A stretch of DNA of 64,000 nt from Kiloniellales bacterium (GTDB lineage: Bacteria; Pseudomonadota; Alphaproteobacteria; Kiloniellales; JAKSDN01), in contig JBHJOF010000078.1 in NCBI GenBank assembly GCA_050330055.1, positions 21,300-85,299 of the forward strand, written 5' to 3'. A model generated the notes under the pieces. It was not told where the DNA came from, did no database searches, and saw only the letters and a program-made list of their open reading frames with translations. A program made the translations under genes and the position numbers. Shown piece after piece: positions 10,769 to 30,335 of this stretch; position 1 is the first letter of the stretch; each line of letters begins with the position of its first letter.

Positions 10769-10782
10769 CGATCCGCGGATCG
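10769..10782. promoter_or_regulatory. Perfect 14-bp palindrome CGATCCGCGGATCG in the aprM upstream region
   Basis: Read directly from the sequence, 208-221 bp upstream of the aprM ATG. Its function is unknown. Confidence 0.2.
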
Positions 10783-11761: not shown

Positions 11762-11817
11762 TTTTGCTCCCGACGTACTTTTCGTGTCGGGCCAATCCGC
11801 TGATCGACCGCTCCATC

Positions 11818-11839
11818 TATATGATAATTAAAATATATT
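11818..11839. promoter_or_regulatory. 22-nt almost pure A/T tract (TATATGATAATTAAAATATATT) in the divergent cysH-like/sat promoter region
   Basis: It is the only strongly AT-rich patch in the 279-bp divergent intergenic region (11762-12040), so it is a likely shared promoter/UP or operator region. Confidence 0.3.
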
Positions 11840-12040
11840 GGGCGGTCACCAGGTTTTGTGTATCACTGCCGTTGGCAGTCGCGGTCTGGATCAAGTTCGA
11901 GGCCCGCCGGGAGTTCGGCTGGGTTTGGCCCGGATCTGCCATCTGCGGGTCCGTTATGGACCTGGTGTTCCTGGCCGTGCTCGAGACTGGGAGCGGTCGT
12001 CCAGCGACGCTCGAGAAGCCAGGCAGGGAGATGTCCAAGG

Positions 12041-13213
12041 ATGTCCATTCTGGTTCCGCCTCATGGCGGCGGCGCGCTAAGACCCTTGCTGCTTCCCAGA
12101 ACGGAGCGCGCCGACGAGCTCAAACGGGCTGAGAAGCTCACGAAGGTTCCCCTGAGCAGCCGTGAGGTCTCGGACCTGCTCATGCTTGCGATGGGCGCCT
12201 ACACTCCGCTTGATGGCTTCATGGGGAAGCAGGATTGGCAGAGCTGCTGCACTGACATGACGACAAGCGAAGGAACGTTCTGGCCTATACCCATAACGCT
12301 GTCCTGCGCCGAGGATATCGCCGGCGCAATCGGCATCGGTGACGAGGTCGCGCTGGTCGACGCGGCGAGCGGAGAAATCCTCGCGATCCAAACGGTGTCC
12401 GAAAAATATAGCATCGACCGCGAACTCGAATGCAAGGAGGTGTTCCGCACCACCGACACGGCCCATCCCGGCGTCCAGAAGGTCATGGAGCAGCCGCCGG
12501 TCAATCTGGCAGGGCCCATCGTGGCGCTGTCGGAGAGTCACTTCCCCGAGACCTACAACGGGCTCTATCACCGGCCAGCCGAAACCAGGGCGATGTTCGA
12601 GGCAAATGGATGGTCGACGGTGGCGGCGTTCCAGACCCGAAATCCGATGCACCGGAGCCACGAGTACTTGGCGAAGCTCGCCATAGAGGTATGTGACGGC
12701 GTGCTCATCCATCAAGTGCTTGGCGCATTGAAGCAGGGCGATATTCCAGCGCATGTCAGAGTGAACGCGATCAATGCGTTGGTCGAGAACTATTTCGCAC
12801 CTGGCACGGTGATCCAGGCCGGCTACCCGATCGAAATGCGCTATGCTGGTCCGCGCGAGGCCTTGCTCCACGCCGTGTTTCGCCAAAACTTCGGCTGCAC
12901 GCACCTTGTGGTTGGTCGCGACCATGCTGGGGTGGGGGACTACTACGGACCGTTCGATGCACATCATATCTTCGACACGCTTCCCGCCGGCAGCATGGAG
13001 ATCCGGCCGATAAAAGTCGACGTCACGTTCTTCTGCTACAAGTGCGAAGGCATGGCGACTGGCAAGACCTGTCCGCACGGCGCGGAGGATCGGCTCACGA
13101 TATCCGGCACGCGGCTACGCGAGATGTTTGCCGGCAGAGAAGCCATTCCAAAGGAGTTCAGCCGCAGAGAGGTGATCGCGGTGCTGCAAGCCTACTACGA
13201 CAGCCTTGGCTGA
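12041..13213 (+). CDS. sat: Sulfate adenylyltransferase (ATP sulfurylase), homo-oligomeric Sat type
   Basis: The track ORF was trimmed to [10 protein letters not shown]..., with AAGGA immediately before the ATG at 12041. Diagnostic blocks: [30 protein letters not shown], and the C-terminal CxxC...CPH zinc-ribbon-like part. Confidence 0.93.
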
Positions 13214-15569: not shown

Positions 15570-17528
15570 TCAATCGTTGCCGTTCCCGCGCTCGCCGCCG
15601 GGGTTCCCGGTCTCGGCAACGACCACCGAATTACGGGGGCGATTCTGGTGCCATTCCCAAACCCACACCGCCCCGCCCAGCACCAAGCCCACGCCCATCA
15701 GATCGGCCCGGTCCAGCGCGCCCGCGGTCAGCAGGACGAAGCCGCTGACGGCGAGCACGATCCGCTCGTAAACCCTGAGCGGTCTGACGAGCCACCCCCA
15801 GAAAGCGGCCGCCAGCATCGTAAGGCCGGCCAAGACCCCGAGAAACGCGAAGAGCATCGGCAGGCTGATCTTCGGGAACTCAAGAAGCACAGGGTTTAAA
15901 ATGAAGACGTACGGGACGGCGAGCGCGACGAACGCGAGCCTCAGCGCGCGACCGCACACCTGCCAGAAGTCGGCTCCGGCGATCCGGGAGGCGGCCTGGG
16001 CGGTGATGGCGATCGGCGGCATCAGGGTGGCGAAGACCGCGAAATAGTAGATGAACATGTGCGACGCCACGGGGTCGAAGCCGATCTCCACTAGGTACGG
16101 CGCCAGGGCCAGCGCCATGAGGATGTAGGCGGCGGCCTCGATGATGGCGAGGCCGGTGACAAGCGTGCAGAGCATGACGAGCGGCAGCGCTATGATCAAT
16201 ATTTGGCCGACCGGGCTGATGATGAGATTGGTCGCAAGGTTCACCCCGAAGCCCGTCGTCATGGCCGTCTGGGACACCGGGCCGATGACTGCCAGGAGCA
16301 AGCCCAGGGTCGCGCAGGTCTTGGCCCCGTCGAGCAGACCCAGAAATATCTCGCGAACCGGCGGGCGGTACTTGCCCTGGATCAGCAGCGCTGCGGCCGT
16401 CGCTCCGATGAGGGCCCAGAACCCGGCCAGCTTCGCGGTGTAGAACAACAAAAGGAACGTGGCCAGAATTCCGATGCCGATCAGGAAGGTGGGGAAGCAT
16501 CGGGCCACCAGGTTCCAGTCGACCCGCTCTTTCACGCGCGGGAAGCCGGACACGCGGGCGTTGAAGTAAATCCCGAGGCCGACTCCAGCATAGTAGAGAA
16601 TGGCTGGAATCGTGGCCGCGAGCGCCACCTGGATGTACGGCATGTTCAGGAAGAATGCCATGACGAAGGCGCCGAGGCCCATGATGGGAGGCATGATGAG
16701 GGCCCCCGCCGAGGCCGAGGACTCGACGGCGGCGGCCATCGCGGGTGGCAGGCCCTGTTTTTTCATCATCGGAATGGTGACCCGGCCCGTGATGATCACG
16801 TTCGCCACGGCCTGGCCGACCATCGTCCCGACGGTGGCGCTCCCGATCAGCGCGGGGTAGGCCGCCCCGCCGCTGATCCGTTGGCCCACCGCCTTGCCAA
16901 ACTCGAGCAGCGCGCTGACCGTGCCGGTCCTGGCCAGCACCGCGCTGAGCAGCAGCACGTAAAAGATCACGTCGGTCGTAAGCGGTATCAGCCAGTAGGT
17001 CCCGAAAACGGGATGCATCGTCGTATAGCTCAGGACCCAGCCGAGCCCGTAATCCTGGTGCCCCCAGAAACCGGGCAGAATGTGCCCGAACAGGAAGTAG
17101 CCGACGGCGAGCACGACGAAACCGACCAGGACCTTCCCCCAGACGTAGTAGCCGGCGATACAGAGCGCGATCAGAGCGCTGACACCGACCACCTTGTCCA
17201 CCGGGTTCAGCAGCCCCACCTCGGTCTCCAGGCGCAGGACGTTCGCATGAACGTAAGCTGCCGAGAACACGCCGGCGACCAAGGCGAAGGTGAGGAGGGC
17301 AAACTTTACGGTGAGGGATAGCCGGGAGCGCTCGTTGTCCTCTCTCAGGGTCTCCGCCATGTGCATCAGGATCGCCATTGAGAAGACGGCGCCGAAAAAG
17401 CTCGCGAAATGCTCCGATACCCCGAGGAGCGGGTGCCAGACGATGAACAACTGGTAGACGACCAGCAGCCCGGCCTCGACGTTCACGATCATGTCGATGA
17501 TCCGCGCCGCCTTTTCCCTTGGCGTCAT
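15570..17528 (-). CDS. TRAP transporter fused permease (4TM/12TM fusion, TAXI-type system)
   Basis: 652-aa protein that is hydrophobic throughout. Size and architecture match the fused DctQM-type permeases that pair with TAXI receptors. Confidence 0.88.
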   Translation of the reverse strand: MTPREKAARIIDMIVNVEAGLLVVYQLFIVWHPLLGVSEHFASFFGAVFSMAILMHMAETLREDNERSRLSLTVKFALLTFALVAGVFSAAYVHANVLRLETEVGLLNPVDKVVGVSALIALCIAGYYVWGKVLVGFVVLAVGYFLFGHILPGFWGHQDYGLGWVLSYTTMHPVFGTYWLIPLTTDVIFYVLLLSAVLARTGTVSALLEFGKAVGQRISGGAAYPALIGSATVGTMVGQAVANVIITGRVTIPMMKKQGLPPAMAAAVESSASAGALIMPPIMGLGAFVMAFFLNMPYIQVALAATIPAILYYAGVGLGIYFNARVSGFPRVKERVDWNLVARCFPTFLIGIGILATFLLLFYTAKLAGFWALIGATAAALLIQGKYRPPVREIFLGLLDGAKTCATLGLLLAVIGPVSQTAMTTGFGVNLATNLIISPVGQILIIALPLVMLCTLVTGLAIIEAAAYILMALALAPYLVEIGFDPVASHMFIYYFAVFATLMPPIAITAQAASRIAGADFWQVCGRALRLAFVALAVPYVFILNPVLLEFPKISLPMLFAFLGVLAGLTMLAAAFWGWLVRPLRVYERIVLAVSGFVLLTAGALDRADLMGVGLVLGGAVWVWEWHQNRPRNSVVVAETGNPGGERGNGND

Positions 17529-17635
17529 GACGAGCTGCCCCCCGCTGATCCGATTATTCCCATTGTGTCAATCGCCGTCGGCCACATCCGGTGAGCTTGC
17601 GCAGGTGTATAAGGCTTCCAAGGCTTCTCGCCTCG

Positions 17636-17672
17636 GCCGGGGCCTGCCTTGGTGACGAAGGCAAGCCCCGGC
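17636..17672 (-). other. Intercistronic GC-rich hairpin (15-bp stem incl. one G-U, 7-nt loop) between the TAXI receptor and permease genes
   Basis: GCCGGGGCCTGCCTT-ggtgacg-AAGGCAAGCCCCGGC, read directly. There is no U-tract, so it is more likely an mRNA stabiliser or attenuator than a terminator. Confidence 0.5.
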
Positions 17673-17760
17673 TTCGGCGAGTGCCGTCGACTCGTCGGGA
17701 AAGAGCAGGCAATCTCTTCCTCGCTTTTGCGCTCCCGAAGAACAAATCGTCAGGTCAGCC

Positions 17761-18843
17761 CTACTCGCCCACCGCGACGGGCTTCCAGATCTTTTCCGGC
17801 GGCCACATGTCGGCTTCCACGAAGGCCTTCTTCGCGCCCGGATGGATGTTGTCCTTGTACGTCCAGTCGAAAGCGAAGGGCGAGACCATCGTCTGAGGAG
17901 TCCAGAGTTGGCCGATAGTGCTCATCGCGCCGGCTTTGGGTCCGATCTCGATGAACGCCTTGGTCAGCTCGTAGGCCAACTCCTCCGGGAAGTCCTTGTG
18001 CACGCTCCGGGTGCCGATGTCCGCAAAGATATTGAACGGCTCGGGTTGATTGGGCAGCGTGTTGGGTGGGAGCTCAACGGAGTACAACGGTACGCCGGTA
18101 TCCTTGACGAGCTTGTTAATGATGTCCGGCGGCCACTCCAGCATGTGGTAGCTCCTGCCCGAGGCGGCGATCCGCGTCACGGTGGGACCGACCTGGATCT
18201 TCGTTACTGGCGGCACGTTCACGTTGCACGACAGCATCGCGGCCTTGACCTTGCCGTCGAAGAGCGCATCCAGCGCCTTCACCGGTCCGAGGCTTTGGAG
18301 CGGTGCGTTGTCGTAAGTCATCCCGTATGCTTTATCGAGCACGAAGGACAGGAGACCGCCCCAGTGGGTCTGCGTCTTGAGGCCAACGCCGATCGGCTGT
18401 CCCTTGAGGTCTTCGACCTTCTTGATGTTTTCATCAAACGTGACAAGCCAGACTTGCCCGAGCATGTATTCCCCAAAGAGGTGGAGAAAGTCGTCGCACG
18501 GCAGCGGCTCGGGGAAGAAGGGCTTGTAGGCGTTCTCGGCGAGATATATGGCCCCGGTCGAGGAGCCGAAGGTTGCGGTCTTCTGCAGGTTCTTGTCCGT
18601 CGCCATGACCTTCAGGTTGTGCACGTAGCCGCCGGTTTCCTGCTGCACGGGCCGCAGCCACTCGTGGTTCTGGGCGACGAAGCGGTCGAAGATGATGAAA
18701 CCCTCCCAGCCGCCGCCCAGCGGATACTGGAGGAAGGGCACCCGCACCTCATCACGTGCGGCTAGGCGAGCCGGCCAGGCCCCGACGGCCAAGGGCGCCG
18801 CCGCCAGTGCCATCTTGGTTACCTGTCTGCGTGTGTACCTCAT
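17761..18843 (-). CDS. TAXI-family TRAP transporter solute-binding protein (Tat/Sec signal)
   Basis: The start was moved to MRYTRRQVTKMALAAAPLAVGAWPARLAA (GGAGG sits 8 nt upstream). Size and sequence style fit the TAXI (immunogenic-protein) receptor family. Confidence 0.8.
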   Translation of the reverse strand: MRYTRRQVTKMALAAAPLAVGAWPARLAARDEVRVPFLQYPLGGGWEGFIIFDRFVAQNHEWLRPVQQETGGYVHNLKVMATDKNLQKTATFGSSTGAIYLAENAYKPFFPEPLPCDDFLHLFGEYMLGQVWLVTFDENIKKVEDLKGQPIGVGLKTQTHWGGLLSFVLDKAYGMTYDNAPLQSLGPVKALDALFDGKVKAAMLSCNVNVPPVTKIQVGPTVTRIAASGRSYHMLEWPPDIINKLVKDTGVPLYSVELPPNTLPNQPEPFNIFADIGTRSVHKDFPEELAYELTKAFIEIGPKAGAMSTIGQLWTPQTMVSPFAFDWTYKDNIHPGAKKAFVEADMWPPEKIWKPVAVGE

Positions 18844-19012
18844 TTTCGTCACCTCCTAGTGAGATCCGTATTCAGGATACGACGGCGGGTTCACGCCAAT
18901 CGGGCGAGGCGCCCTGCAGGCCGATCTGGAACTCAACCGTTGAGCGCTTGGACAGGAGCTTCTTCCAAAGCTCCCTGCCTTTAATCACGCCGCCCGACCT
19001 GGATTCGGTGAA

Positions 19013-19802: not shown

Positions 19803-21038
19803 ATGGCCAGGACAGCGAAGCAGTGGAATCGCAAGCCTGACTTGAACGCGGTCGAGTATGTCGATAGCCGAATCTACACCGATGAGGCGATCTTCGAGCA
19901 GGAGCTCGAGAAGATCTGGAAGAGGACCTGGGTCCTGGCCTGCCACGAGTCCGAGCTCCCGGCGGCCTACGACTTCCGGACCATGACGATCGCCCGCGAG
20001 CCGATCGTCATCTGCCGCGGCGAGGACGAGAAGGTGCGCGCCTTCCTCAACGTCTGCCCGCACCGGGCGAACCTGATCGTGCGGGCGCCGGCCGGCAGCT
20101 TCGCCGTCGGCGAGCCCTCCGGCAATCCCAAGCGCATGACCTGCATGTTCCATGGCTGGCAGTTCAGCATGAAGGGCGAATGCACCGAGATCACCCGCAT
20201 GAAGCAGGGCTACCAGGAGCGGCTCGGCAAGGACGACGTCAGCCTGCGCGAGCTGCGTTGCGAGGTAGGATACGGCGGTTTCGTCTGGGTCACCCTGGAT
20301 GACGAAGCGATGTCACTCAGGGACTTCGTCGGCTCTTCGCTCGACTTCCTGATGACCGAGCTGGAGAGCGAGCCGCTCGAGGTCTTCCACTATCACAAGT
20401 CGATCATCGACTCGAACTACAAGCTGTGGCACGACACCAACAGCGAATTCTACCACGACTACATGCACTACCATAACCGGGTCACCAGCATGATGCAGCC
20501 CGGCTACTTCGACCGAAAATACACCGCTTTTGCCAACGGCCATGCCTCGGTCGGCTCGATGGAGGTGAGGTACGACGCCTACCACGGCTTCCAGAGCCGC
20601 GACCTGTCGTTCCCGGGCATGCCGCGCAACGGCTGGAAGATGGTCGACATGTTCCCCGGTTATACCTACAACCTGCGCGGCTCCTCCCTGCGCATCGACA
20701 CCATGACGCCAATCAGCGCCAACAAGGTCATGATCGAGTTCCGCGGCCTCGGCCTCAAGAAGGACACTCCGGAAGAGCGACGCCAGCGCATCCGGGACCA
20801 CAACACCATCTGGGGTCCCTTCGGCCGCAACCTGCACGAGGATCTGCTCGGCATCACCGGTCAGGGCGTGGCCATGCGTCCGCACCAGGAGACGCGCTAC
20901 GTGCTGCACGGGCGGCACGAGGACAACACGATTCACGACGAGATCGGCATGCGCCACTACTACGAGGAATGGAGCCGCCGGATGGGAATCTCGCCGATCG
21001 ATCCGGCCGTGAAGCTGGCAAGCGCCGCGGCGGAATAA
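19803..21038 (+). CDS. msmA: Rieske non-haem-iron oxygenase large subunit, methanesulfonate monooxygenase MsmA-like
   Basis: 411 aa with AAGGAG 7 nt upstream. The Rieske motif is CPH-(26 aa)-CMFH (nt 20055-20153), the unusually long spacer reported for MsmA. A mononuclear Fe region is present (NSEFYHDYMHYH). Confidence 0.8.
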   Translation: MARTAKQWNRKPDLNAVEYVDSRIYTDEAIFEQELEKIWKRTWVLACHESELPAAYDFRTMTIAREPIVICRGEDEKVRAFLNVCPHRANLIVRAPAGSFAVGEPSGNPKRMTCMFHGWQFSMKGECTEITRMKQGYQERLGKDDVSLRELRCEVGYGGFVWVTLDDEAMSLRDFVGSSLDFLMTELESEPLEVFHYHKSIIDSNYKLWHDTNSEFYHDYMHYHNRVTSMMQPGYFDRKYTAFANGHASVGSMEVRYDAYHGFQSRDLSFPGMPRNGWKMVDMFPGYTYNLRGSSLRIDTMTPISANKVMIEFRGLGLKKDTPEERRQRIRDHNTIWGPFGRNLHEDLLGITGQGVAMRPHQETRYVLHGRHEDNTIHDEIGMRHYYEEWSRRMGISPIDPAVKLASAAAE

Positions 21039-21100
21039 GGCGCGAGACCCCTGGGCTCGCCGGTGGCGGCCGGTCCGGAGTCAGTTGGGAGGACACGAAA

Positions 21101-21601
21101 GTGGCTAAGAATGGCGCGGACCTGGAGTCGTCGGTTAGGGACTTGATCTATCGCTCCGTCGTCCTGATGGACGGACAGCAGGTCACCGAATGGCTCGAAG
21201 CGCTCTGCACGCCCGACTTCGAGTACCTGATCACCGCCTATAGCCATGAGATCAGGCGCGAGCAGGAATGGTTCCATGGCCGGCGCGACGAGCTGCTCGA
21301 CGTCGTCAAGATGATGCCCTACCACAACACCGACCACTCGCCCTTCACCCGGCATGTCAGCGTCTACACGGTCGACATCGACGAGTCGGGTAAGACCGCC
21401 GAGGCGATCAGCTCGCTGGTCGTCTATCAGAACATGTTCGACGGCATCAACTCGCACCTCGATTCGGGCGAGACGCGCCTGTTCTGCTCCGGCAAGTACT
21501 ACGACCGGGTGAGCCTGGAGGGCGATCGGCCGCGCCTGCTGCAGCGCAATGTCAGGCTGGATACCCGGCGCCTCGACAAGGGCTCGCATTTTCTCCTGTG
21601 A
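21101..21601 (+). CDS. msmB: Oxygenase small (beta) subunit, MsmB-like
   Basis: GTG start with GGAGGA 8 nt upstream, 166 aa (~19 kDa). The position and NTF2-like beta-subunit size match MsmB. Confidence 0.7.
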   Translation: MAKNGADLESSVRDLIYRSVVLMDGQQVTEWLEALCTPDFEYLITAYSHEIRREQEWFHGRRDELLDVVKMMPYHNTDHSPFTRHVSVYTVDIDESGKTAEAISSLVVYQNMFDGINSHLDSGETRLFCSGKYYDRVSLEGDRPRLLQRNVRLDTRRLDKGSHFLL

Positions 21602-21645
21602 GGTCGGTGGGGCCAAAATTCGAAGAGGGAGCGGAAACGTCCTTT

Positions 21646-21981
21646 ATGGGTTGGAAATACGTTTGCAAGGCCGATGAGCTGCAGGATCGCGGCCTGAAGC
21701 AGTTCGAGGTCGAGGGCGTGCCGATCCTGTTGGCGCGCCTGGGTGATGACTTCTTCGCCTACCCGCCGCTCTGCCCGCACCAGGAGGAGGTGCTGGCCGT
21801 CTCCGGCGTATGCGACGGCTCCACGCTCACCTGCACCAAACACCTCTGGCAGTGGGATATGCGCACCGGAAGCGAGATCGGATTGGCGGAAAAGCCGCTG
21901 CTCATGTACCAGGTGCGGCAGGACGGCAACGACGTCTCCGTCCTGATAGAGCAGGAGCTGAAGTATGACTATGACGATTGA
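21646..21981 (+). CDS. msmC: Rieske-type [2Fe-2S] ferredoxin, MsmC-like
   Basis: MGWKYVCKADEL..., with CPH at LCPHQEE and C-x2-H at CTKHLW. An alternative GTG start at 21598 overlaps the msmB stop. Confidence 0.78.
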   Translation: MGWKYVCKADELQDRGLKQFEVEGVPILLARLGDDFFAYPPLCPHQEEVLAVSGVCDGSTLTCTKHLWQWDMRTGSEIGLAEKPLLMYQVRQDGNDVSVLIEQELKYDYDD

Positions 21982-22131
21982 TCCGGCGGCGATGGCGTCG
22001 CTGGCGAGGCACTAGAACCCGGATGCGACGACGCTGGCGCCCTGCACGGAACGGCAGGCGCCCTCGCGGAGGTTCTGCAGCAATCACTCTCGCCCGCGCG
22101 GCGATTCCGCAGGGAGGCTGGAGGAGAGGCC

Positions 22132-23211
22132 ATGAAGGCCGTGGATGCCAGGCGCGGTGAACCGGCGATGAAGATCCGGGCCCGCACCAAGGAAGGCGAC
22201 TTCGCCTTCTCCTGCGAGCCGGGTGAGCGGATTCTCTACGCCGGCCTGCGTAACGGCGTGCCTCTGCCGTACGAATGCGCGACCGGCACCTGCGGCACCT
22301 GCAAAGCGCGCGGCAATGGCGCTGCGATCGACGAGCTGTGGCGCGAGGCGCCGGGCCGCTCCTTCCTCAAGCCGGAGCGCGGCGAGTTCCTGATGTGCCA
22401 GTCGGTCAGCGGCGGAAGCTGCGAGATCGAGGTGCCGGCCCGGTTGCAGCAGGCGCCGATGGCGGCCATCACGCCCGACTACCGCCGCGGCCGGATCAGC
22501 GGCATCCGGCGCTTGACCCACGACGTCATTTTCTTCGAGCTCGGCCTCGAGCGGACGATGCGCTACCACCCCGGCCAGTTCGTGGTGATGCGGGCGCCGG
22601 GCGTCGAGGGCTTTCGCGCCTACTCGATGGTCAATCACGAAGCGGAGACCGATTTTCTGCAGTTCGTGGTCAAGCGCAAGCCTCATGGCGCCTTCTGCGA
22701 CTGGCTGTTCGGCTGGCCCGCCGAGGGCACGGAGGTCGAAATATTCGGGCCGCTCGGCCGCGCCGTGTTCGACCCGGCGGAGGGCAAGAACCTGCTGGCG
22801 ATCGCCGGCGGATCGGGCATTGCCGGCATCATGGCGATCCTGGCCCGGGCCCGGCAAGGCGGCTACTTCGCCGCGCATAAGGGGGCCGTCTTCTTCGGCG
22901 TGCGTGGCTTGGCCGACGGCTTCTTCCTGGACGAGCTCGCTGACCACGTGGCCGCGGCGGCGGGGAACTTGAGCGTCACGGTCGCGCTCTCGCACGAAGA
23001 CCCGCCCGGCGGCGCGTACCCGGGCTATCCGAGTCTCGCCGCGGCCAGCGGCTTCGTGCATGTCGTGGCCGCCCAGAGCATTGCCCGGCATAGGGACAAT
23101 GCCGTCGCCTTTGTCGCCGGTCCACCGCCCATGGTCGATGGCGCCCTGCGTATGCTGATCATCGAGGCGCGCCTGCCGGCGGGCGACATCCGCTACGACA
23201 AGTTCGGCTGA
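22132..23211 (+). CDS. msmD: Plant-type [2Fe-2S] ferredoxin-NAD(P)H reductase component, MsmD-like
   Basis: N-terminal CATGTCGTC...C ferredoxin motif, an FNR-like flavin block (RAYSM), and an NAD block (LLAIAGGSGIAG). GGAGGAG sits 5 nt upstream of the ATG. Confidence 0.85.
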   Translation: MKAVDARRGEPAMKIRARTKEGDFAFSCEPGERILYAGLRNGVPLPYECATGTCGTCKARGNGAAIDELWREAPGRSFLKPERGEFLMCQSVSGGSCEIEVPARLQQAPMAAITPDYRRGRISGIRRLTHDVIFFELGLERTMRYHPGQFVVMRAPGVEGFRAYSMVNHEAETDFLQFVVKRKPHGAFCDWLFGWPAEGTEVEIFGPLGRAVFDPAEGKNLLAIAGGSGIAGIMAILARARQGGYFAAHKGAVFFGVRGLADGFFLDELADHVAAAAGNLSVTVALSHEDPPGGAYPGYPSLAAASGFVHVVAAQSIARHRDNAVAFVAGPPPMVDGALRMLIIEARLPAGDIRYDKFG

Positions 23212-23227
23212 TGCACGGAGACGTGAG

Positions 23228-23674
23228 ATGGTTGACAGTGCCGACTTGACCGAGCGCCTGCAGAGGGCCGACTTCCTGCGCGACGTATCACCCGCCAGCC
23301 TCGCCAAGATCGCGCGCATCGCCGAGCGCGAGAGCTTCGCCGAGGGCGATGCGATCTATCAGCTCGGCGATCCGGCCGAGGACCTCTTCATCGTCGAGTC
23401 GGGCCGTATCCGCTTCGCGCTCGGCGTCGGCAACCGCGGCGGGACCAGTGGCTCGGTCATTTCCCAGGGCCAGGTGGTCGGCTGGGCCGCCGTGCTCGAG
23501 GACCAGCCGCGCCTGCTGGCCACGGCCGTTTGCCTCGAGGACTCCCAGGTCATCCGGATCAACGGCGCCAAGCTGCTCGCCGTCTTCGACCACGATACGA
23601 CCTCGGGCTATGCGGTGATGCGGCGCCTCGCCACCATGATCGCGCACGACCTGACCGAGGTGCTGACTGCTTGA
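23228..23674 (+). CDS. Stand-alone cyclic-nucleotide-binding (CAP effector) domain protein, no DNA-binding domain
   Basis: 148 aa, starting 16 nt after msmD. Typical blocks FAEGDAIYQLGDPAEDLFIVESGRIRF and GQVVGW.. are present. It ends before any HTH. Confidence 0.78.
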   Translation: MVDSADLTERLQRADFLRDVSPASLAKIARIAERESFAEGDAIYQLGDPAEDLFIVESGRIRFALGVGNRGGTSGSVISQGQVVGWAAVLEDQPRLLATAVCLEDSQVIRINGAKLLAVFDHDTTSGYAVMRRLATMIAHDLTEVLTA

Positions 23675-24121
23675 GCGCCGCGTCCGACCGCCGCCGGCCT
23701 ACAGTCGGATGTCTCACGACGGTGTGATGATGCAGTCCGGCGCGTCGATACCTAGCGTCAATGAAACAATATTGAGCATGAAATTGACGCTTCCTCGCTT
23801 CCCTAGCACGCTTTGTCGTTCGCTGGTGACGGTGGGGACTGCGGCCACGCCCGTGGCGGATGGGCAACGGGCAGGGCGGCCGTCCTTAGACCCAAATGTC
23901 AACTTCCATCGATAACAGTCGATGATGAATCGTCCGGCCACGACAATCGGGCCCATAAACGGGGTCCGCGACACTAGGGAGGGACAAATATGGGCGCAGG
24001 GTTTGGCCCTGATGCGTACGACGAAAAAACCCGTCGCATGATTCAGGGGATGATCGAAGCCGAGCAGCAGGCACTCGCCGCACGCAAGGCCGAGCTCGAG
24101 GACTGCGAGTGCAAGGAGGGC

Positions 24122-25384
24122 ATGTTTCCCAATCCGGGCCGGCGCGGCCTCCTGATGGGAGCGGCTGCCCTGGGCGGTGCGCTCTTGGCCGGGCGCGCGG
24201 CGCAGGCGGATGCGCCGCCCGGCGCCATCGAGTATCCCGAGCTGCCGGATCCGACCAAGGCACTGGGCCGGCCGGTCAATGCCAACGGCGGCTATGGAAC
24301 GCGCGCGCAGTTCGAATCCGAGGTGCGCTGGCGTTTCCCGACGGCCACCGAGGAAACCTCCTGGACCATGACGCCGCTCGACAAGAGCCAGGGCATCATC
24401 ACGCCGTCCGGACTGCACTTCGAGCGCCATCACGGCGGCGTGCCGGTGATTGATCCGGCCAAGCACAGGCTGCTGGTGCACGGCGTGGTGAAGCAGCCCA
24501 AGATGTTCACCATGGCCGATCTGAAGCGCTATCCCTCGGTCTCGCGCATGTACTTCATCGAGTGCTCGGGCAACGGCCTGACGGAATGGAGCAAGCCGAC
24601 ACTGAAGACGGTGCAGGGTACGCATGGGCTGACCAGCACCTCGGAGTGGACCGGGATTCAGCTTTCGACCATTCTTGCCGAATGCGGCCTGCAGGACGGT
24701 GCCGCCTGGGTCCTGGCCGAGGGCGCCGACGCAGCGGTCATGACCCGCAGCATTCCGCTCGACAAGTGCATGGGTGATGCCATTCTGGCCTTCGGCCAGA
24801 ACGGCGAGATGCTGCGGCCCGAGCAGGGCTATCCGCTGCGCCTGCTGCTGCCGGGCTGGGAAGGCAACACGCACATCAAGTGGCTGCGCCGCCTCGAAGT
24901 CAGCGACAAGCCCTTCATGAGCCGCGAGGAGACCTCCAAGTACACGGACCTGCTGGCCGACGGCAAGGCGCGGCAGTTCTCCTTCACCATGGAGGCCAAG
25001 TCGGTCATCAACTTCCCGTCGGGCGAAATGAAGCTGCCCGGACCGGGCTTCTACGAGATTACCGGCCTCGGCTGGTCCGGGCGCGGCCGGGTCGAGCGCG
25101 TCGAGGTCTCGACGGATGGGGGCAAGTCGTGGGGCGTGGCTTCGCTGCAGGACCCCATCATGCCGATCTGCCACACGCGCTTCCGCTTCCCCTGGGTGTG
25201 GGACGGGCAGCCGACCGTGCTGCAGAGCCGTTGCACTGACGAGACGGGCTACGTGCAGCCGACCTTGAAGCAGTTGGTCGAGGTGCGCGGCCTGAACGGC
25301 CCGATCGGCTCGATCTATCACCTGAACGCCATCCAGAGCTGGGCGGTGGCAAGCGATGGGAGCGTCAGCAATGTCCACGGGTAA
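24122..25384 (+). CDS. Molybdopterin sulfite dehydrogenase catalytic subunit (SoxC/SorA-like), Tat-exported
   Basis: Tat signal GRRGLLMGAAALGGALLAGRAAQA. Family blocks: FERHHGG, YFIECSGNG, GYPLRLLLPGWEGN, and a C-terminal dimerisation domain. The start was chosen at 24122 (AAGGAGG 3 nt upstream). An in-frame alternative at 23990 also has a strong SD. Confidence 0.88.
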   Translation: MFPNPGRRGLLMGAAALGGALLAGRAAQADAPPGAIEYPELPDPTKALGRPVNANGGYGTRAQFESEVRWRFPTATEETSWTMTPLDKSQGIITPSGLHFERHHGGVPVIDPAKHRLLVHGVVKQPKMFTMADLKRYPSVSRMYFIECSGNGLTEWSKPTLKTVQGTHGLTSTSEWTGIQLSTILAECGLQDGAAWVLAEGADAAVMTRSIPLDKCMGDAILAFGQNGEMLRPEQGYPLRLLLPGWEGNTHIKWLRRLEVSDKPFMSREETSKYTDLLADGKARQFSFTMEAKSVINFPSGEMKLPGPGFYEITGLGWSGRGRVERVEVSTDGGKSWGVASLQDPIMPICHTRFRFPWVWDGQPTVLQSRCTDETGYVQPTLKQLVEVRGLNGPIGSIYHLNAIQSWAVASDGSVSNVHG

Positions 25385-25946
25385 GATGAAGCTGGGCCTG
25401 ACCGCGCTTGTCGCTGGCTTGGCCCTGGGTGCCAGTCACGCCTGGTCGGGTGGCGGCTATCAGGTCACCTATGGTTTCGGCCAGCCGGCGAGCGAGGCCG
25501 AAATCGCCGCCCTGGCGATCGCGATTCCGCCTGACGGCGAGCACCTGCCGCCGGGCAGCGGCACCTGGGAACAGGGTAAGCAGGTTTACGTCGAGAAGTG
25601 CGCGGCCTGCCATGGCGAGCAACTCGAGGGCGTGAAGGAGACCGGCGGCGATCCCCTGATCGGCGGCCGTGGCTCGCTCGACAGCGGCAGCCCGAAGAAG
25701 ACGGTCGAGAGCTTCTGGCCCTATGCCACAACGGTATTCGATTTCGTGCGCCGGGCCATGCCCTTCGCCGAGCCGGGCTCGCTCACCGACGACGAGGTCT
25801 ATGCCGTGACAGCCTACATTCTCGCCGAGGGCGACATCATCGCCAAGGACCAGATGATGAACGCGGAGACGCTGCCCAAGGTGCAGATGCCGAACCGGGA
25901 CGGCTTCATCCCGGATCCTCGGCCGGACGTCTTCAACTACAACTAA
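25371..25946 (+). CDS. Mono-haem cytochrome c subunit of the sulfite dehydrogenase (SoxD/SorB-like)
   Basis: Signal peptide MSTGKMKLGLTALVAGLALGASHA and a single CAACH haem motif. It overlaps the end of the Mo-subunit gene. Confidence 0.85.
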   Translation: MSTGKMKLGLTALVAGLALGASHAWSGGGYQVTYGFGQPASEAEIAALAIAIPPDGEHLPPGSGTWEQGKQVYVEKCAACHGEQLEGVKETGGDPLIGGRGSLDSGSPKKTVESFWPYATTVFDFVRRAMPFAEPGSLTDDEVYAVTAYILAEGDIIAKDQMMNAETLPKVQMPNRDGFIPDPRPDVFNYN

Positions 25947-25997: not shown

Positions 25998-26035
25998 GGG
26001 GCGGCTCCACGAAAGAGCCGCCCCGCCCTTTTTTT
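25998..26035 (+). terminator. Rho-independent terminator after the sulfite dehydrogenase genes
   Basis: GGGGCGGCTC-cacgaaa-GAGCCGCCCC followed by GCCCTTTTTTT. Confidence 0.85.
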
Positions 26036-26209: not shown

Positions 26210-26210
26210 A

Positions 26211-27107
26211 CTATTCGGCGGCAGTGCCGAGCTGCTTCAGCTTCGAGCCCCACTTCATCTGCTCAGCGAATTTGCGCAGCTCGTCGGCCGACATGTAGAC
26301 GGTATGCTCAGGTCCGGGATAAGTGCGGCTGCGAACGTCGTCCATGTAGCGCGTGATCACGTCTTCCATGATCGGGATCAGGTCGGTGTAGATCTTGGAG
26401 TGGCGCGGTACGTGCTCTTCCCAGAGATGGAACAGGTCAGAGCTGATGATGTGCACGCCATGCGCCTTGTTGCCGGCGCCCAAGCTGATGACCGGTACCG
26501 GCAGGGTCTCGGTCAGGTACTCGCAGACCTCCTCGGTCGTCACCTCGCAGAGGATCGAGAAGCAGCCGGCGTCGACCATGGCCAGCGCATCATCGATCAG
26601 CTCCTTGGCCCGGTCCGAGGTCTTGCCCTGTGCCACGAAGCCGCCGAGCTGCGGCATGCGCATCGGCGTGATACCGATGTGTCCCTGGACCGGGATGCCG
26701 GCCTTGACGATCGCCTCGATGTTCCGGGCGTGGTGCTGGTTGCCCTCACACTTCATCACTTCCGCGTTGGCCTCGTGGCAGAAGCGGCCGGCGTTCTCGA
26801 CCGCCTGCTCCGGCGAGATGTGGAAGCTCCAGTAGGGCATGTCGACCATGCGCAGGCCGTATTTGCTGCCGCGGTCGATCGCTTTCGACATCATCATGAC
26901 CTCGTCGAAGCTGACCGTCACCGTGCTCTGGTGGCCGAACAGGATCATGCCGCCGGTGTCCGACACGCAGAGGATGTCCATGCCGAGCCGGTCGGCGACC
27001 ACCGCGGTGCGATAGTCGTAGACCGCCATCTGGGTGATCGCCTCGCCCTCGTGCATCTTCTTCATGAGGCTGTTGATCGTGACTTTCTTTCTTTTCGTTT
27101 CGGCCAT
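26211..27107 (-). CDS. 3-methyl-2-oxobutanoate hydroxymethyltransferase family protein (PanB-like paralogue, longer C-terminus)
   Basis: Trimmed to MAETKRKK... (GGGAGGA 5 nt upstream). PanB-type blocks: ILCVSDTGGM, VDMPYWSF, KCEG, PVQGHIGITPM. It is 298 aa, versus the roughly 265-275 aa I recall for canonical PanB. Confidence 0.8.
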   Translation of the reverse strand: MAETKRKKVTINSLMKKMHEGEAITQMAVYDYRTAVVADRLGMDILCVSDTGGMILFGHQSTVTVSFDEVMMMSKAIDRGSKYGLRMVDMPYWSFHISPEQAVENAGRFCHEANAEVMKCEGNQHHARNIEAIVKAGIPVQGHIGITPMRMPQLGGFVAQGKTSDRAKELIDDALAMVDAGCFSILCEVTTEEVCEYLTETLPVPVISLGAGNKAHGVHIISSDLFHLWEEHVPRHSKIYTDLIPIMEDVITRYMDDVRSRTYPGPEHTVYMSADELRKFAEQMKWGSKLKQLGTAAE

Positions 27108-27368
27108 GGTGTCCTCCCTGGCGTGTCCGCACGAGATGCTTTGCACGGCCGACTGCAGGCGTATCGTCCCGGCGTGGCCGGCCATGGTTGTCAGCAAAGA
27201 AAGATAGGCAGAAACTATAAAAGCTTCGGCTCTTTCTTGCCATTATTAAGAAAACTATCTAGACGACACTACATCAACTGGCGCAGAGAGAACAACTCCC
27301 CTGCTTATATTTATTGACTATAGTTCGTTCACTGGAGACTATTAAGCGGCCAGCCTGTGAGATGGGCG

Positions 27369-28394
27369 TCAGAGGGGGCGCCAGTCAGCGCTCCAGTCGC
27401 CCCGGGGCCGCCGCTTCTCGGTGTCGTAGAACGGCAGAGGCACGACCTCCAGGTCCCGGAACAGTCCGCAGGAGTCCGAGAGACGACGACCTGTCTGGGC
27501 ATCGGCTGGAAGGACGTAGCCGAGAGCCAGAACGCCGTTGGCGAGCGGGCTCCAGCAGGCCGAGGTGATGGCGATGCAGCCGGGCTCCTGAGGCGGGCTC
27601 AAGGTTTTGGGTGGCTGCCACAGCAGGGGCCGTTCGTCGGCTGCGCGGCGGACGCAGACCAGGCGCATTTGCGGCGCTGCAGCGGCCGGACTCGCGAACT
27701 GCGCCAAGCCCGCTTCCTCGGCGGTGACCGGCAAGGCGAACTCGTTGACGAAGAGCGCCAGGCCCGCCTCGATGCGCAGACGGTCGGCTGCTGCGACGCC
27801 GGCCGGCCGGGCCCGCTCGGCCAGCTGCGCCCAAACCGCTTCGGCCTGCGCGCGCGGCAGCACCAGCTCGAAGCCGCGTTCGCCGCTGTAGCCCAGCCGG
27901 CCGACCCGGCAGGACACGCCGGCCACCTCGGCCTCGCCGTGGCCGAAGTAGGGGAGGCGAGACAGACGTTCGAGGTCCGCCAATCCCTCGAGCGCGCGCA
28001 GGGCGTTCGGTCCCTGCAGGGCATAGATGGCGGTATCCTCGGTCAGATCTTCGAAGCTGTCGGTGCGCGCCAGCTCTGCCAGCTCTGCGAGATCGGTGGG
28101 CCGGCCGGTCATGACCTCGAAGCTACCGTCGCCCAGGTTCCAGATCGTCAGGTCGGATACGAGCGAGCCGTCCGGACGGGCGTGCAGCGCGTAGGCGATG
28201 CGTCCGGGTGCCAGCCGATCGAAGGATCGCTTGGTGAAGCCGCTCAGGACGGCGGCGGCGTGCGTCCCGGTGATGCGTGCCCGCGCGACGAAGGAGAAGT
28301 CGAACAGGGCGCAGTCGTTGCGGCAGGCCGCGGCCTCGCCGTCGGGGTCGCCGTAGTCGGCGACGAAGCGGCGTCCGAAGGGCAGGGCCGCCAT
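27369..28394 (-). CDS. GcvT-family aminomethyltransferase / folate-binding protein
   Basis: Trimmed to MAALPFGRRF... (ATG at 28394, 5 nt after the tauE-family stop). Blocks: ALFDFSFVARARITG and RLGYSGERGFELVLP. Confidence 0.82.
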   Translation of the reverse strand: MAALPFGRRFVADYGDPDGEAAACRNDCALFDFSFVARARITGTHAAAVLSGFTKRSFDRLAPGRIAYALHARPDGSLVSDLTIWNLGDGSFEVMTGRPTDLAELAELARTDSFEDLTEDTAIYALQGPNALRALEGLADLERLSRLPYFGHGEAEVAGVSCRVGRLGYSGERGFELVLPRAQAEAVWAQLAERARPAGVAAADRLRIEAGLALFVNEFALPVTAEEAGLAQFASPAAAAPQMRLVCVRRAADERPLLWQPPKTLSPPQEPGCIAITSACWSPLANGVLALGYVLPADAQTGRRLSDSCGLFRDLEVVPLPFYDTEKRRPRGDWSADWRPL

Positions 28395-28399
28395 GCCGC

Positions 28400-29161
28400 T
28401 CAGCCGCCGATCAGGCGCCAGCCGATCTGCACGAGCAGCCAGAGGCCGACCAGGATCAGGACCTGCGCCACGATGCGTCGCAGCAGCGCGAGCGGCAGCT
28501 TGTGCGCGAGCTGTGCGCCGATCGCCGAGCCCAGTGCGAGCCCGGTGGCAATCGTCGCGCCCAGCACCAGGTCGAGGCTGCCGTAGATCAGGTTTCCGGC
28601 CGTCGCCAGCGCGGCTATCGGCAGCTGGATCGCCTGGCTCAGTCCGATCGCGGTCAGGATCGGCAGCTCGAGCCAGATCAGCAGCGGCACCAGCACCAGG
28701 GGGCCGCCGGTTCCACTTAGCGCCGAGGCGAAGCCGGTGACGGCGCCGGTGGCCAGCAGCCAGGGGCGGGCGAAGCCGGACTCCGATCCATCCTTCTTCG
28801 CCTCGGGTCGCCAGGCGCGGATGCCCGCCATCAGGATCAGCGCCGCGATGACGAGCTCGAGCAGCGTCGCGTTCACGACGTTGCTCGCCCAGGAGCCGGC
28901 AAAGGCGGCCGGCATGGCGCCGGCGCAAAGCCAGATCGCCATGGGCCAGCGGATCGAGCCGTGCCGCGCGAAGATCACCGCGCCGATCAGGCCGGTCAAG
29001 AGATAGCTGAACATGGCGGCGGCGATCGCGGTGCGGATGTCGATGCCGCCCAGGTAGATCAGGGTCGGCACCAGCAACACGCCGCCGATCCCTATGCAGC
29101 CGATCAGCCCACCGACAAGGATGGCGAAAAGTGCAAGCGCCAGGAGCGCGGCCGTGGTCAT
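28400..29161 (-). CDS. TauE/SafE-family (DUF81) sulfite/sulfonate exporter
   Basis: 253 aa, about 7-8 TM, with the internally duplicated Gly-rich pattern typical of the family (GIGGVLLVP ... GTGGPLVLVP). Confidence 0.82.
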   Translation of the reverse strand: MTTAALLALALFAILVGGLIGCIGIGGVLLVPTLIYLGGIDIRTAIAAAMFSYLLTGLIGAVIFARHGSIRWPMAIWLCAGAMPAAFAGSWASNVVNATLLELVIAALILMAGIRAWRPEAKKDGSESGFARPWLLATGAVTGFASALSGTGGPLVLVPLLIWLELPILTAIGLSQAIQLPIAALATAGNLIYGSLDLVLGATIATGLALGSAIGAQLAHKLPLALLRRIVAQVLILVGLWLLVQIGWRLIGG

Positions 29162-29268
29162 GGCGAGCGCGTGGCCGCCCGCTTCTTCACCAGGCGATGC
29201 GGCTCATCCTGTCGGCCTGTGGATGCCGCCTGGCAGCGATATTCTTCACGCCAGGCGGCTTGATTTTG

Positions 29269-29283
29269 ATAGAGAAAGGCTAT
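29269..29283. promoter_or_regulatory. LysR-type T-N11-A box ATAG-N7-CTAT
   Basis: ATAGAGAAAGGCTAT lies in the 223-bp divergent region between the tauE-family gene and the LysR gene. Confidence 0.4.
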
Positions 29284-29384
29284 TGAAAGTGCCATGATAG
29301 CCGAACTGTAAGCGGCTGGAGAAGACACCCTAAATCTAGCCGCTGCCGACAACAAAAACTAAGAAAAACGTCAGGAGGGAAGCC

Positions 29385-30335
29385 ATGTTTTTCAGGCAGT
29401 TCGAGTATCTTGTTGCGGTGATAGAGGAGCAACACTTCGGGCGTGCGGCGGAGCGCTGCCACGTCTCGCAGCCAAGCCTGTCGAACGGCATCAAGCAGCT
29501 CGAGTTGGAGCTCGGCGTCCCGATCTTTCGCCGCGGGCAGCGCCTGCATGGCTTGACGGCGGAAGGCAAGCGGGTCGCCGAATGGGCGCGGCGGGTGCTG
29601 GCTCACCGCGACGCCATGCGCGACGAGCTGGCGGCCATGCACGAAAACCTGCAGGGCAACCTGCGCCTCGGCGCCATGCCGACCTGCTCGCCAGTGCTGC
29701 CGCTCTTCATCAGGCTGCTGCAGGAGCATCACCCCGGAGTGCGCGCCGACATTCAGTTCATCGGCATCGAGGCCATGAAAGTCGGCCTCAGCAACTACTC
29801 GCTTGACGTCGGCTTCACCTATCTGAACGAGGACGATCTGCAGCGCTGCAAGACGTTGCCTGTCTACGTCGAGCGGCTAAGCCTGCTGGTGCCTGACAAC
29901 GAGAGATTTCACGACCGCACCTCGGTCACTTGGCGTGAGGCCGTCGAGTTGCCGCTCGCCCTACTGCGCAGCTCGATGCATGAGCGCCACATCTTCGACG
30001 CGACCTTCAAGAAGGTCGGCGCCCGTCCTCGGCCGAACGTCGAATCGGAATCGATCCTGCACCTCATGTTCCACGTCATGTTCGGCCAGCTCTCGGCCAT
30101 CGTACCGGCGCACTTCGCGCTGCTGCCTGGAGCCTTCCCGGGCACCCGCGTGCTCGACCTGGTCGAGCCGGTGATCTCCCGCGAGGTCGGCCTGGTCTGG
30201 GCCGAGGGCGATCCCACCATGCCCATGGCCAAGGTCATGGTTTCCATCGTCGAGGAAGCGCGCAAGTCCGGCGAGCTGCAGCGCCGCCTGGGCGAGTTCG
30301 CCATCGGCAACGAGGTCGAGGCGATCCCCGCATAG
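29385..30335 (+). CDS. LysR-family transcriptional regulator
   Basis: N-terminal wHTH (FRQFEYLVAVIEEQHFGRAAERCHVSQPSLSNGIKQLE) plus a LysR substrate-binding domain. It is divergent from the tauE/gcvT-like operon. Confidence 0.9.
   Translation: MFFRQFEYLVAVIEEQHFGRAAERCHVSQPSLSNGIKQLELELGVPIFRRGQRLHGLTAEGKRVAEWARRVLAHRDAMRDELAAMHENLQGNLRLGAMPTCSPVLPLFIRLLQEHHPGVRADIQFIGIEAMKVGLSNYSLDVGFTYLNEDDLQRCKTLPVYVERLSLLVPDNERFHDRTSVTWREAVELPLALLRSSMHERHIFDATFKKVGARPRPNVESESILHLMFHVMFGQLSAIVPAHFALLPGAFPGTRVLDLVEPVISREVGLVWAEGDPTMPMAKVMVSIVEEARKSGELQRRLGEFAIGNEVEAIPA

Follow-up and report, generated by a model that had tools for sequence, protein, structure and literature searches.

Methanesulfonate (MSA) is among the major products of dimethylsulfide oxidation in the atmosphere, and bacteria that break it down bring its sulfur and carbon back into the cycle. 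Their pathway is usually written as one enzyme followed by the "spontaneous" release of formaldehyde and sulfite. We analyzed a 64,000-nucleotide (nt) stretch of DNA from a Kiloniellales bacterium (contig JBHJOF010000078.1, positions 21,300 to 85,299; "the window"), in which tauE, a GcvT-like gene, a PanB-like gene and a divergent lysR lie close to msmABCD-like genes for a methanesulfonate monooxygenase. The closest described locus is the msm region of Filomicrobium sp. Y (KM879220), where LysR, TauE, "glycine cleavage T", "3-methyl-2-oxobutanoate hydroxymethyltransferase", SoxC and SoxD are encoded beside msmEFGH and msmABCD (Henriques and De Marco 2015, PMC4433239). The two enzymes were described there, from annotation, merely as "reactions linked to methylotrophic pathways". 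The window holds the same gene set (lysR, tauE, "gcvT", "panB", soxC and soxD), but Filomicrobium sp. Y has an ABC transporter and co-directional soxCD, whereas the window has a TAXI-type TRAP transporter and convergent soxCD. An earlier note on this DNA had regarded the pairing of a sulfite exporter with two folate-dependent enzymes as not belonging to any established pathway; we also found only annotation, although the set as such had already been listed for Filomicrobium sp. Y.

Other described systems share parts of this arrangement. In the degradation of taurine, sulfoacetate and alkanesulfonates, sulfite arises in the cytoplasm and is handled by a TauE-family exporter and a periplasmic molybdenum sulfite dehydrogenase, a logic that is discussed in PMC4433239 and that the window repeats. 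The window is unlike the taurine-type systems in that the exporter gene lies 5 nt from the gene of a folate enzyme, and in that the substrate is a one-carbon (C1) sulfonate whose carbon leaves as formaldehyde. The tetrahydromethanopterin-dependent enzyme Fae has the role that we propose here, the enzymatic loading of formaldehyde onto a pterin C1 carrier, but its fold is unrelated and its cofactor is different from those of the window enzymes. For tetrahydrofolate (THF), no dedicated formaldehyde-activating enzyme has been identified according to PMC7073904.

The genes described below form a real and strongly conserved accessory module of MSA catabolism that had been noticed before as annotation only. 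Our reading, to which we assign a probability of roughly 0.55, is that the set would be a conserved product-handling module in which the C1 unit is placed on THF and the sulfite is exported. The genes on which this reading turns are the following.

26211..27107, minus strand: PanB-like protein (ketopantoate hydroxymethyltransferase family), 298 amino acids (aa), member of a distinct msm-linked clade (Pfam, 270 bits)
27108..27368, minus strand: 261-nt spacer with promoter-like sites and a second ATAG-N7-CTAT dyad (site prediction, dyad count)
27369..28394, minus strand: GcvT-like protein, predicted to bind THF, 341 aa, stand-alone (Pfam GCV_T, 174 bits)
28400..29161, minus strand: TauE/SafE-family membrane protein, putative sulfite exporter (Pfam TauE, PF01925)
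29385..30335, plus strand: LysR-type transcriptional regulator, divergent from tauE (Pfam HTH_1 and LysR_substrate)
19803..23674, plus strand: msmABCD-like methanesulfonate monooxygenase (alpha subunit 19803-21038, beta subunit 20969-21601, ferredoxin 21598-21981, reductase 22132-23211) and a small cyclic-nucleotide-binding protein (Pfam)
23990..25946, plus strand: periplasmic SoxC-type molybdenum sulfite dehydrogenase (23990-25384) and its cytochrome c partner (25356-25946) (NCBIfam, Pfam)

The four genes from the PanB-like gene to lysR are present as the earlier note had described them, and its statements about the layout were confirmed. Only 5 nt (GCGGC) lie between the tauE stop codon (TGA) and the GcvT-like ATG. 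A 261-nt AT-rich spacer (51% G+C, compared with ~65% for the window) lies between the GcvT-like stop and the PanB-like ATG at 27107, which is preceded by GGGAGG. The PanB-family paralogue is longer than the canonical enzyme (298 aa as compared to 264 aa for E. coli PanB), and the surplus is mainly a conserved C-terminal tail of ~28 aa. The nearby oxygenase to which the note referred is encoded by the msmABCD-like genes at 19803-23211. Its 411-aa alpha subunit, MsmA, is 59-71% identical to the MsmA homologues of related loci and contains the Rieske motif CXH-X26-CXXH at residues 85-117, with the 26-residue spacer kept in all MsmA sequences examined in PMC4433239. With the oxygenase and dehydrogenase genes upstream, the four genes close a sulfur and C1 island.

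Conservation of the gene set beside msmABCD

We surveyed the neighborhoods of GcvT-like relatives by scanning one genome per species, which gave 564 relatives, and analyzed the best 80 loci by searching their open reading frames (ORFs) with the window proteins as queries. All 80 are from metagenome-assembled genomes (MAGs) of Alpha- and Gammaproteobacteria (Xanthobacteraceae, Pseudolabrys, Hyphomicrobiaceae, Methyloligellaceae, Arenicellales and Chromatiales). The PanB-like gene lies directly downstream of the GcvT-like gene in 75 of these loci. The pairing of tauE with the GcvT-like gene, whose co-occurrence the earlier note had raised, held in 68/80 loci, where tauE is directly upstream; the median gap in related loci is 3 nt. 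A divergent lysR was found in 77/80 loci, msmA within 10 kb of the GcvT-like gene in 54/80, and SoxC in 37/80. Absent cases are mostly contig ends, or a transporter operon between the module and msm, as in Filomicrobium.

The reciprocal survey was anchored on MsmA in metagenome contigs (80 loci), and the 22 loci of at least 15 kb were used for module counts. Sixteen of the 22 have a PanB-like or a GcvT-like gene (14 PanB-like, 11 GcvT-like, 9 both), and one further long locus ends in lysR-tauE. The PanB-like, TauE and GcvT-like genes are still together in the divergent lineage represented by locus L159. Genes for GCV_T-fold, PanB-fold, TauE-family and LysR proteins co-occur with MsmABCD in more than 100 surveyed loci, and hundreds more relatives were detected beyond these. 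A variant order, lysR divergent from tauE-panB-like-msmABCD without a GcvT-like gene, occurs in L144, L149, L154, L162 and L164 (also L112, L133 and L155), and there the PanB-like gene is positioned 27-40 nt upstream of msmA. The folD gene is within the fetched stretch of 11 of the 80 MsmA-anchored loci and adjoins the cluster in L083.

The uptake system differs by lineage: a TAXI-TRAP transporter in the window and L115, an msmEFGH-type ABC transporter in L084 and Filomicrobium, and an MFS transporter in L083, L087, L110 and L134. Non-orthologous importers replace one another beside a catabolic core that stays the same. TauE remains constant while the importer varies, which argues that TauE is not the MSA importer.

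The cluster proteins are not equally conserved. Median identity to the window copy is 82% for the PanB-like protein, 66% for SoxC, 62% for MsmA, 61% for LysR, 51% for TauE and 47% for the GcvT-like protein, so that the PanB-like protein is the most conserved of the cluster, above the catalytic oxygenase subunit. The earlier note had treated the two enzymes as one unit, a view that the surveys do not support: each occurs without the other, and the PanB-like protein is both more constant and more conserved.

The GcvT-like and PanB-like proteins

The glycine cleavage T-protein (EC 2.1.2.10) shares a three-domain fold and the folate-site residues with the GcvT-like protein and provides its best sequence and structure matches. 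The 341-aa protein matches PF01571 GCV_T with 174 bits, and its C-terminal barrel matches PF08669 just under the cutoff (22.7 bits). A protein with 100% identity to the window sequence is recorded at NCBI for a MAG labeled "Kiloniellales bacterium". Scores against the NCBIfam GcvT models are all below the cutoffs (TIGR00528, 112 bits against 236; NF001567, 138 against 300; NF010093, 114 against 459). The only NCBIfam models that align over the whole length of the protein are of the GcvT type and the C-terminal domain of the trimethylamine N-oxide (TMAO) demethylase Tdm; positions 421-762 of the Tdm model NF053776, itself under its cutoff, align to residues 20-331.

When a profile of the GcvT-like family was searched against PDB sequences (E<=1e-5), the highest scores were obtained with T-proteins (1woo, 152 bits; 1yx2, 150 bits; human T-protein, 123 bits) and TMAO demethylase (9q59, 130 bits, residues 441-788), followed by dimethylglycine oxidase (94 bits), the sarcosine oxidase alpha subunit (84 bits), DmdA (67 bits) and LigM (37 bits). 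An AlphaFold2 model of the protein (mean predicted local distance difference test score, pLDDT, of 89.7) gave the same order in Foldseek, with template modeling (TM) scores of ~0.8 to GcvT (1woo, 1yx2 and 1wsr) and dimethylglycine dehydrogenase. D81, E172 (in GYxGE) and R207 do not vary among 26 family members, and the alignments match them to positions in the T-proteins of T. maritima and B. subtilis; we take them to be the catalytic Asp, the GYTGE Glu and the LRxEAG Arg of the T-protein folate site. Folate binding by the GcvT-like protein is expected from the invariance of these residues.

The protein is unlike a working T-protein in several respects. Besides the scores below the curated cutoffs, ~16 N-terminal residues are lacking (family residues 11-12 align to T-protein residues 28-31), and in E. 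coli the T-protein requires its N-terminus for binding H-protein. Neither gcvH nor gcvP is encoded nearby, and the partners are instead a sulfite exporter and a sulfonate oxygenase. No GcvH homologue was found in the window or in 164 loci with an E. coli sequence as the probe, in a search that had no positive control.

A role in iron-sulfur cluster maintenance, as for YgfZ or IBA57, was another possibility named in the earlier note. Such a factor might serve the Rieske oxygenase, ferredoxin and reductase, and the several 2Fe-2S clusters of the oxygenase system, together with a cysteine (C24) that is invariant in the GcvT-like family, would suit it. We consider this extremely improbable. YgfZ was matched neither in NCBIfam nor in the PDB profile search, and Foldseek TM scores to YgfZ/IBA57 are 0.53-0.65; 1vly and 1nrk score 0.61-0.65, with E-values of 1e-12 to 1e-13 compared with 1e-24 for T-proteins. 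The sequence carries the T-protein motif GRLGYSGERGFE instead of the YgfZ signature.

The earlier note had also considered a separate THF-dependent demethylation of a methylated sulfonate. In such a reading, the GcvT-like protein would demethylate a sulfonate or a sulfonium compound in the manner of DmdA, apart from the oxygenase. GcvT-fold methyltransferases do exist (DmdA, LigM and DesA), and their models match the protein weakly. The scores, however, are far under the cutoffs: 46 bits for DmdA (410), 25 for LigM (580) and 42 for DesA (800). In a second tabulation of the same scores the values of LigM and DesA are interchanged (42 against 800 and 25 against 580). The PDB profile likewise places T-proteins and Tdm well above DmdA and LigM. 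The gene is moreover tied to msmABCD, and the oxygenase itself oxidizes the only methyl group of MSA. This reading is therefore highly improbable.

Judged from its sequence, the GcvT-like protein is neither a glycine-cleavage T-protein nor a YgfZ, as indicated by the sub-cutoff scores, the missing N-terminus, the lack of GcvH and the lack of a YgfZ match. It is predicted to be a free-standing folate module of the formaldehyde-capturing type known from Tdm. The folate domains of Tdm, dimethylglycine oxidase/dehydrogenase and the sarcosine oxidase alpha subunit have the GcvT fold, and that of Tdm aligns over the full length of the window protein. These modules take formaldehyde or an iminium from a neighboring active site and convert it to 5,10-methylene-THF. 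In Tdm, the GcvT-like domain forms 5,10-methylene-THF from channeled formaldehyde (PMC13619132). Whereas such domains are fused to, or assembled with, the producer of formaldehyde, the window protein stands alone, and no fused form was found among the 120 GcvT-like homologues listed (327-372 aa).

PanB (EC 2.1.2.11) is a member of the isocitrate-lyase/phosphoenolpyruvate-mutase superfamily, with retro-aldol and hydroxymethyl-transfer chemistry. The PanB-like protein matches PF02548 Pantoate_transf over its full length (270 bits, profile positions 1-258 of 259) and has the six charged residues of PanB in common with it. In addition to the C-terminal tail, it differs in four altered pocket motifs and in overall identity, which is 33-38% to canonical PanBs (35-38% to those of solved structures and of plasmid-borne panB genes). 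It scores 3.6 bits above the cutoff of TIGR00222 (211.2 against 207.55) and below that of NF001452 (247.4 against 272). Identity within the clade is 84-94% across Alpha- and Gammaproteobacteria, compared with ~47-50% for the adjacent GcvT-like protein. In a neighbor-joining tree the clade is monophyletic on a long stem, with 85% identity within it, 33% to canonical PanBs and 42% among the canonical PanBs. A library clustered at 50% identity contains one full-length representative of the clade (84%), two relatives at 46-47% and otherwise sequences at 41% or less. On these comparisons the PanB-like proteins are a discrete clade, separated from other sequences by a gap in identity from ~80% to 47%.

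The two genes might nevertheless encode a genuine T-protein and the PanB of pantothenate synthesis, located beside msm by chance or for a co-regulated folate supply. Public records annotate both genes in this way, and the TIGR00222 score is just above an equivalog cutoff. We regard this as very unlikely given the GcvT-like scores (112-138 bits against cutoffs of 236-459), the truncated N-terminus and the GcvH result described above, and because the identity of the PanB-like protein to canonical PanBs is below that of canonical PanBs to each other. The clade is also tight across two proteobacterial classes and sits beside msm, tauE or sox genes in every locus seen. No second panB was present in the 64-kb window or in 164 loci. 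A plasmid search with the PanB-like protein returned 649 records, all below 60% identity and all ordinary panB, with no msm-type copy among them. No pantothenate-pathway gene was noticed among the neighbors of the PanB-like genes, for which no specific search was made. The housekeeping, DmdA-like and YgfZ-like explanations are each contradicted by the tests presented here.

The six charged active-site residues and four pocket motifs of PanB are listed in PMC13488298. The catalytic hexad, D45 (D45/46), D84, K112, E114, H136 and E181 in E. coli numbering, is invariant in 61 members of the clade, from which Mg2+-enolate or retro-aldol chemistry at the hydroxymethyl carbon is expected. The pocket, in contrast to the hexad, is remodeled by clade-invariant changes in all four motifs: LVGDS to CVSDT, HLGLTPQS to HIGITPMR, IPVIGIGAG to VPVISLGAG, and DGQILVMHD to HGVHIISSD. 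The canonical residues G44 (96% of canonical PanBs), Q142 (95%) and Q211 (89%) are replaced, as are D209 and G220, the latter by His. The signature motifs are unchanged in clusters without a GcvT-like gene, and no compensating changes were found in the PanB-like proteins of those clusters.

An intact hexad in a remodeled pocket is also what would be expected of a changed 2-oxoacid, which brings up a linear route of C1 assimilation. The GcvT-like protein would make 5,10-methylene-THF from formaldehyde that stems from MSA, and with it the PanB-like enzyme would hydroxymethylate a 2-oxoacid other than 2-oxoisovalerate (e.g., pyruvate to 4-hydroxy-2-oxobutanoate), with the carbon passing to biosynthesis. 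The adjacency of the two genes in 75/80 loci is in line with such a route. PanB enzymes accept other 2-oxoacids and free formaldehyde, as described in aldolase papers and by Sugantino et al. as cited in PMC7073904. We consider the linear route unlikely. The tauE-panB-like-msmABCD operons have no GcvT-like gene, and no aminotransferase, reductase or other product-processing enzyme was noticed among the conserved neighbors. Replacement of Q142, D209 and Q211 is unexpected if the methylene-THF half-reaction is unchanged, and the serine cycle or FolD already consume methylene-THF.

The two nearest relatives of the clade are 46-47% identical to it. In P0246 (L081, 46%), D84 and K112 are lost, and tauE follows its gene. 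P0247 (L082) is encoded between genes for an MFS transporter and a Crp-type regulator, and a gene of the SBP56 family (methanethiol-oxidase-like) is ~4.5 kb away, which as a single case is a weak lead.

Formaldehyde, sulfite and proposed LysR control

The hydroxyl group of hydroxymethanesulfonate (HMS), the formaldehyde-bisulfite adduct, has a pKa of ~11.7. Above the pKa of bisulfite the adduct has a Kd of ~0.2 mM, and it breaks down at 43 s-1 in its high-pH form only (PMC6459274). From this rate and the hydroxyl pKa, we computed a breakdown of ~3e-3 s-1 at pH 7.5, a half-life of minutes. An MSA flux of 1-10 mmol per g dry weight per h would then need tens to hundreds of mM HMS, on the rough assumption of ~2.3 ml cell water per g. 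Because the level needed is so high, completion of the cleavage falls either to the oxygenase or to another enzyme. The condensation of formaldehyde with THF raises a similar problem: from measurements in vivo, the spontaneous reaction was concluded to be too slow, as it would give a doubling time of weeks (PMC7073904). The same paper named a two-step PanB route as a conceivable catalyst, in which formaldehyde and 2-oxoisovalerate give ketopantoate and the unit is then transferred to THF. "Spontaneous" release is thus doubtful, given an adduct half-life of minutes at neutral pH and a condensation with THF that is too slow for growth.

In the product-handling module that we favor, MsmABCD would hydroxylate MSA to HMS. 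The PanB-like enzyme, with its remodeled pocket, would have the hydroxymethyl unit as its target; most probably it would cleave HMS (or trap formaldehyde) and so free sulfite. The GcvT-like protein would condense the C1 unit with THF to 5,10-methylene-THF, as the Tdm, dimethylglycine oxidase and sarcosine oxidase domains do, and FolD or the serine cycle would consume this product. TauE may export the sulfite to the periplasm for oxidation by the SoxCD-type dehydrogenase, and exporter and dehydrogenase together would pull sulfite away so that the formaldehyde-sulfite adduct cannot re-form. LysR would activate both the tauE-gcvT-like unit and the separately promoted panB-like gene.

The first reading of the earlier note, a trap for formaldehyde or HMS coupled to sulfite export, fits the comparative evidence best, since the genes travel with msmABCD and a SoxCD-type dehydrogenase, folD is sometimes adjacent, and the GcvT-like protein resembles T-proteins and the Tdm folate domain; the support it gains here is genomic. 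The two enzymes are divergent members of known families whose job is likely C1 capture on folate and resolution of the formaldehyde-sulfite pair. Within this reading the least secure step is which enzyme acts on HMS. We favor the PanB-like enzyme over the GcvT-like protein because it is present more constantly and varies less in sequence, can share an operon with msmA, and has a relative that pairs with tauE. Tentatively, the PanB-like protein may be a dedicated HMS-cleaving enzyme (a Mg2+-dependent HMS lyase or an HMS:THF hydroxymethyltransferase), with the GcvT-like protein as a THF-dependent formaldehyde-activating enzyme, a specific assignment that is possible rather than probable.

TauE matches PF01925 with 131 bits over profile positions 1-236 of 237. 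The best NCBIfam match of LysR is CynR, at 157 bits and under the cutoff of 277. Two dyads were found in the DNA around these genes.

29269..29283, unstranded: perfect dyad ATAG-N7-CTAT (T-N11-A type), candidate LysR box in the lysR/tauE intergenic region
27204..27218, unstranded: second ATAG-N7-CTAT dyad, ~97 nt upstream of the PanB-like start

The exact dyad thus has two copies in 64 kb, compared with 0.06 expected, one upstream of tauE and one upstream of the PanB-like gene, and a copy with one mismatch is located upstream of msmA (19410-19424). It recurs in the equivalent lysR/tauE intergenic region of 13/75 loci. We consider the copy at 29269-29283 a candidate LysR box. The 261-nt spacer contains two sigma-70-like sites, compared with 0.5 expected, and in 88/88 loci measured the PanB-like gene has such a spacer in front of it, 79-356 nt long (median 184). 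TTGAC is present in 80/89 spacers, and in 15/89 a GCCCCAT(G/A)G-like box comes 14-22 nt after it (spacers of L006-L137). A conserved spacer with promoter-like sites suggests that the PanB-like gene probably has its own promoter in most lineages. An Rfam scan of 25900-30500 at a permissive threshold identified no riboswitch or known RNA in the spacer. Of the "LysR-controlled operon" of the earlier note, LysR control accords with the divergent lysR and its T-N11-A dyad, but "operon" is too strong a word in view of the promoter-like sites and of the spacer in all 88 loci.

Several observations weigh against the product-handling module. Purified methanesulfonate monooxygenase, from its four components alone, is described as yielding formaldehyde and sulfite (PMC4433239), so an HMS-cleaving enzyme may be unnecessary, and two folate-type enzymes for one C1 unit are not parsimonious. 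Among the MsmA-anchored loci, six carry a PanB-like but no GcvT-like gene; the reverse holds for one locus (L115); and neither gene was found in the fetched stretch of five long msmA loci (L096, L113, L121, L142 and L148). The module is therefore either not obligatory or can be encoded elsewhere. In L115, tauE and the PanB-like gene are absent and aprBA directly follows instead; ORFs of 261, 153 and 614 aa, with sizes and order matching those of the window, come there after the msmABCD, cyclic-nucleotide-binding and GcvT-like genes, assigned by size and order only. The exact dyad was found upstream of none of 98 PanB-like genes in other loci, so that the second dyad is specific to the window or the box differs by lineage. 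The sulfite-export role of the TauE family is itself inferred in the literature. The AlphaFold2 model of the PanB-like protein, built on a clade-only alignment, is too poor for a fold search or pocket analysis (pLDDT 56), and the folate site of PanB has no structural definition from which THF use by the clade could be judged. In the literature searched we found no functional test of a GcvT-like or PanB-like gene of this kind, only the annotation of 2015.

Neighboring genes and implications for MSA catabolism

The remainder of the window around the island contains the following features.

25998..26024, both strands: terminator-like hairpin, GC-rich and flanked by T-runs, where the cytochrome c and PanB-like genes converge; likely a bidirectional terminator
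15570..18852, minus strand: TAXI-type TRAP transporter, with fused permease (15570-17528) and binding protein (17761-18852) (Pfam DctM and NMT1_3; TIGR02122 TRAP_TAXI)
7415..13213: sulfur genes aprA (7415-9259), aprB (9259-9720), a 261-aa protein (9776-10561), a gene for a protein like 3'-phosphoadenosine 5'-phosphosulfate reductase (11183-11761) and sat (11858-13213)

The SoxC-type dehydrogenase is well above the cutoff of its family model (TIGR04555 sulfite_DH_soxC, 581 bits against 420) and carries the twin-arginine motif GRRGLL; the Pfam domains of the pair are Oxidored_molyb, Mo-co_dimer and Cytochrom_C. AprBA and Sat provide a cytoplasmic route from sulfite to sulfate beside the msm island. 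With the SoxC-type dehydrogenase in addition, the organism appears to oxidize sulfite in both the cytoplasm and the periplasm. The TAXI-TRAP transporter, divergent from msmA, is a putative methanesulfonate importer, a substrate taken from gene position only. The same permease and binding-protein pair is located upstream of msmA in L115.

Directly after msmD, at 23228-23674, is a gene for a small 148-aa protein made up almost wholly of a cyclic-nucleotide-binding domain. Its homologues are encoded after or next to msmD in 15/80 genome loci and in many metagenome loci. Clusters of the Xanthobacteraceae type have, between msmD and lysR, a conserved 239-aa protein (L083, 7358-8077) that is absent from the window; it was found in 46/84 genome loci and 17/80 metagenome loci, matched no Pfam family and may be another pathway member. 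Downstream of lysR are the nitrous oxide reductase genes nosR, nosZ and nosD, an ABC-2 permease gene and apbE (32355-41165), and a plus-strand ORF with a similar codon bias overlaps a rubrerythrin-like ORF on the minus strand (31259-32176).

The conserved pair of a folate-family and an aldolase-family enzyme provides concrete candidates for both of the catalysts missing from MSA catabolism. If the tentative assignment of HMS cleavage and formaldehyde activation to the two enzymes holds, they would connect the formaldehyde-releasing oxygenase enzymatically with the folate C1 pool, and breakage of the C-S bond in MSA catabolism would not be simply spontaneous. With the candidates confirmed, the PanB family would gain a new activity, and projects on synthetic C1 assimilation a sought-after enzyme. 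Many database entries that name these genes gcvT and panB would then need correction.

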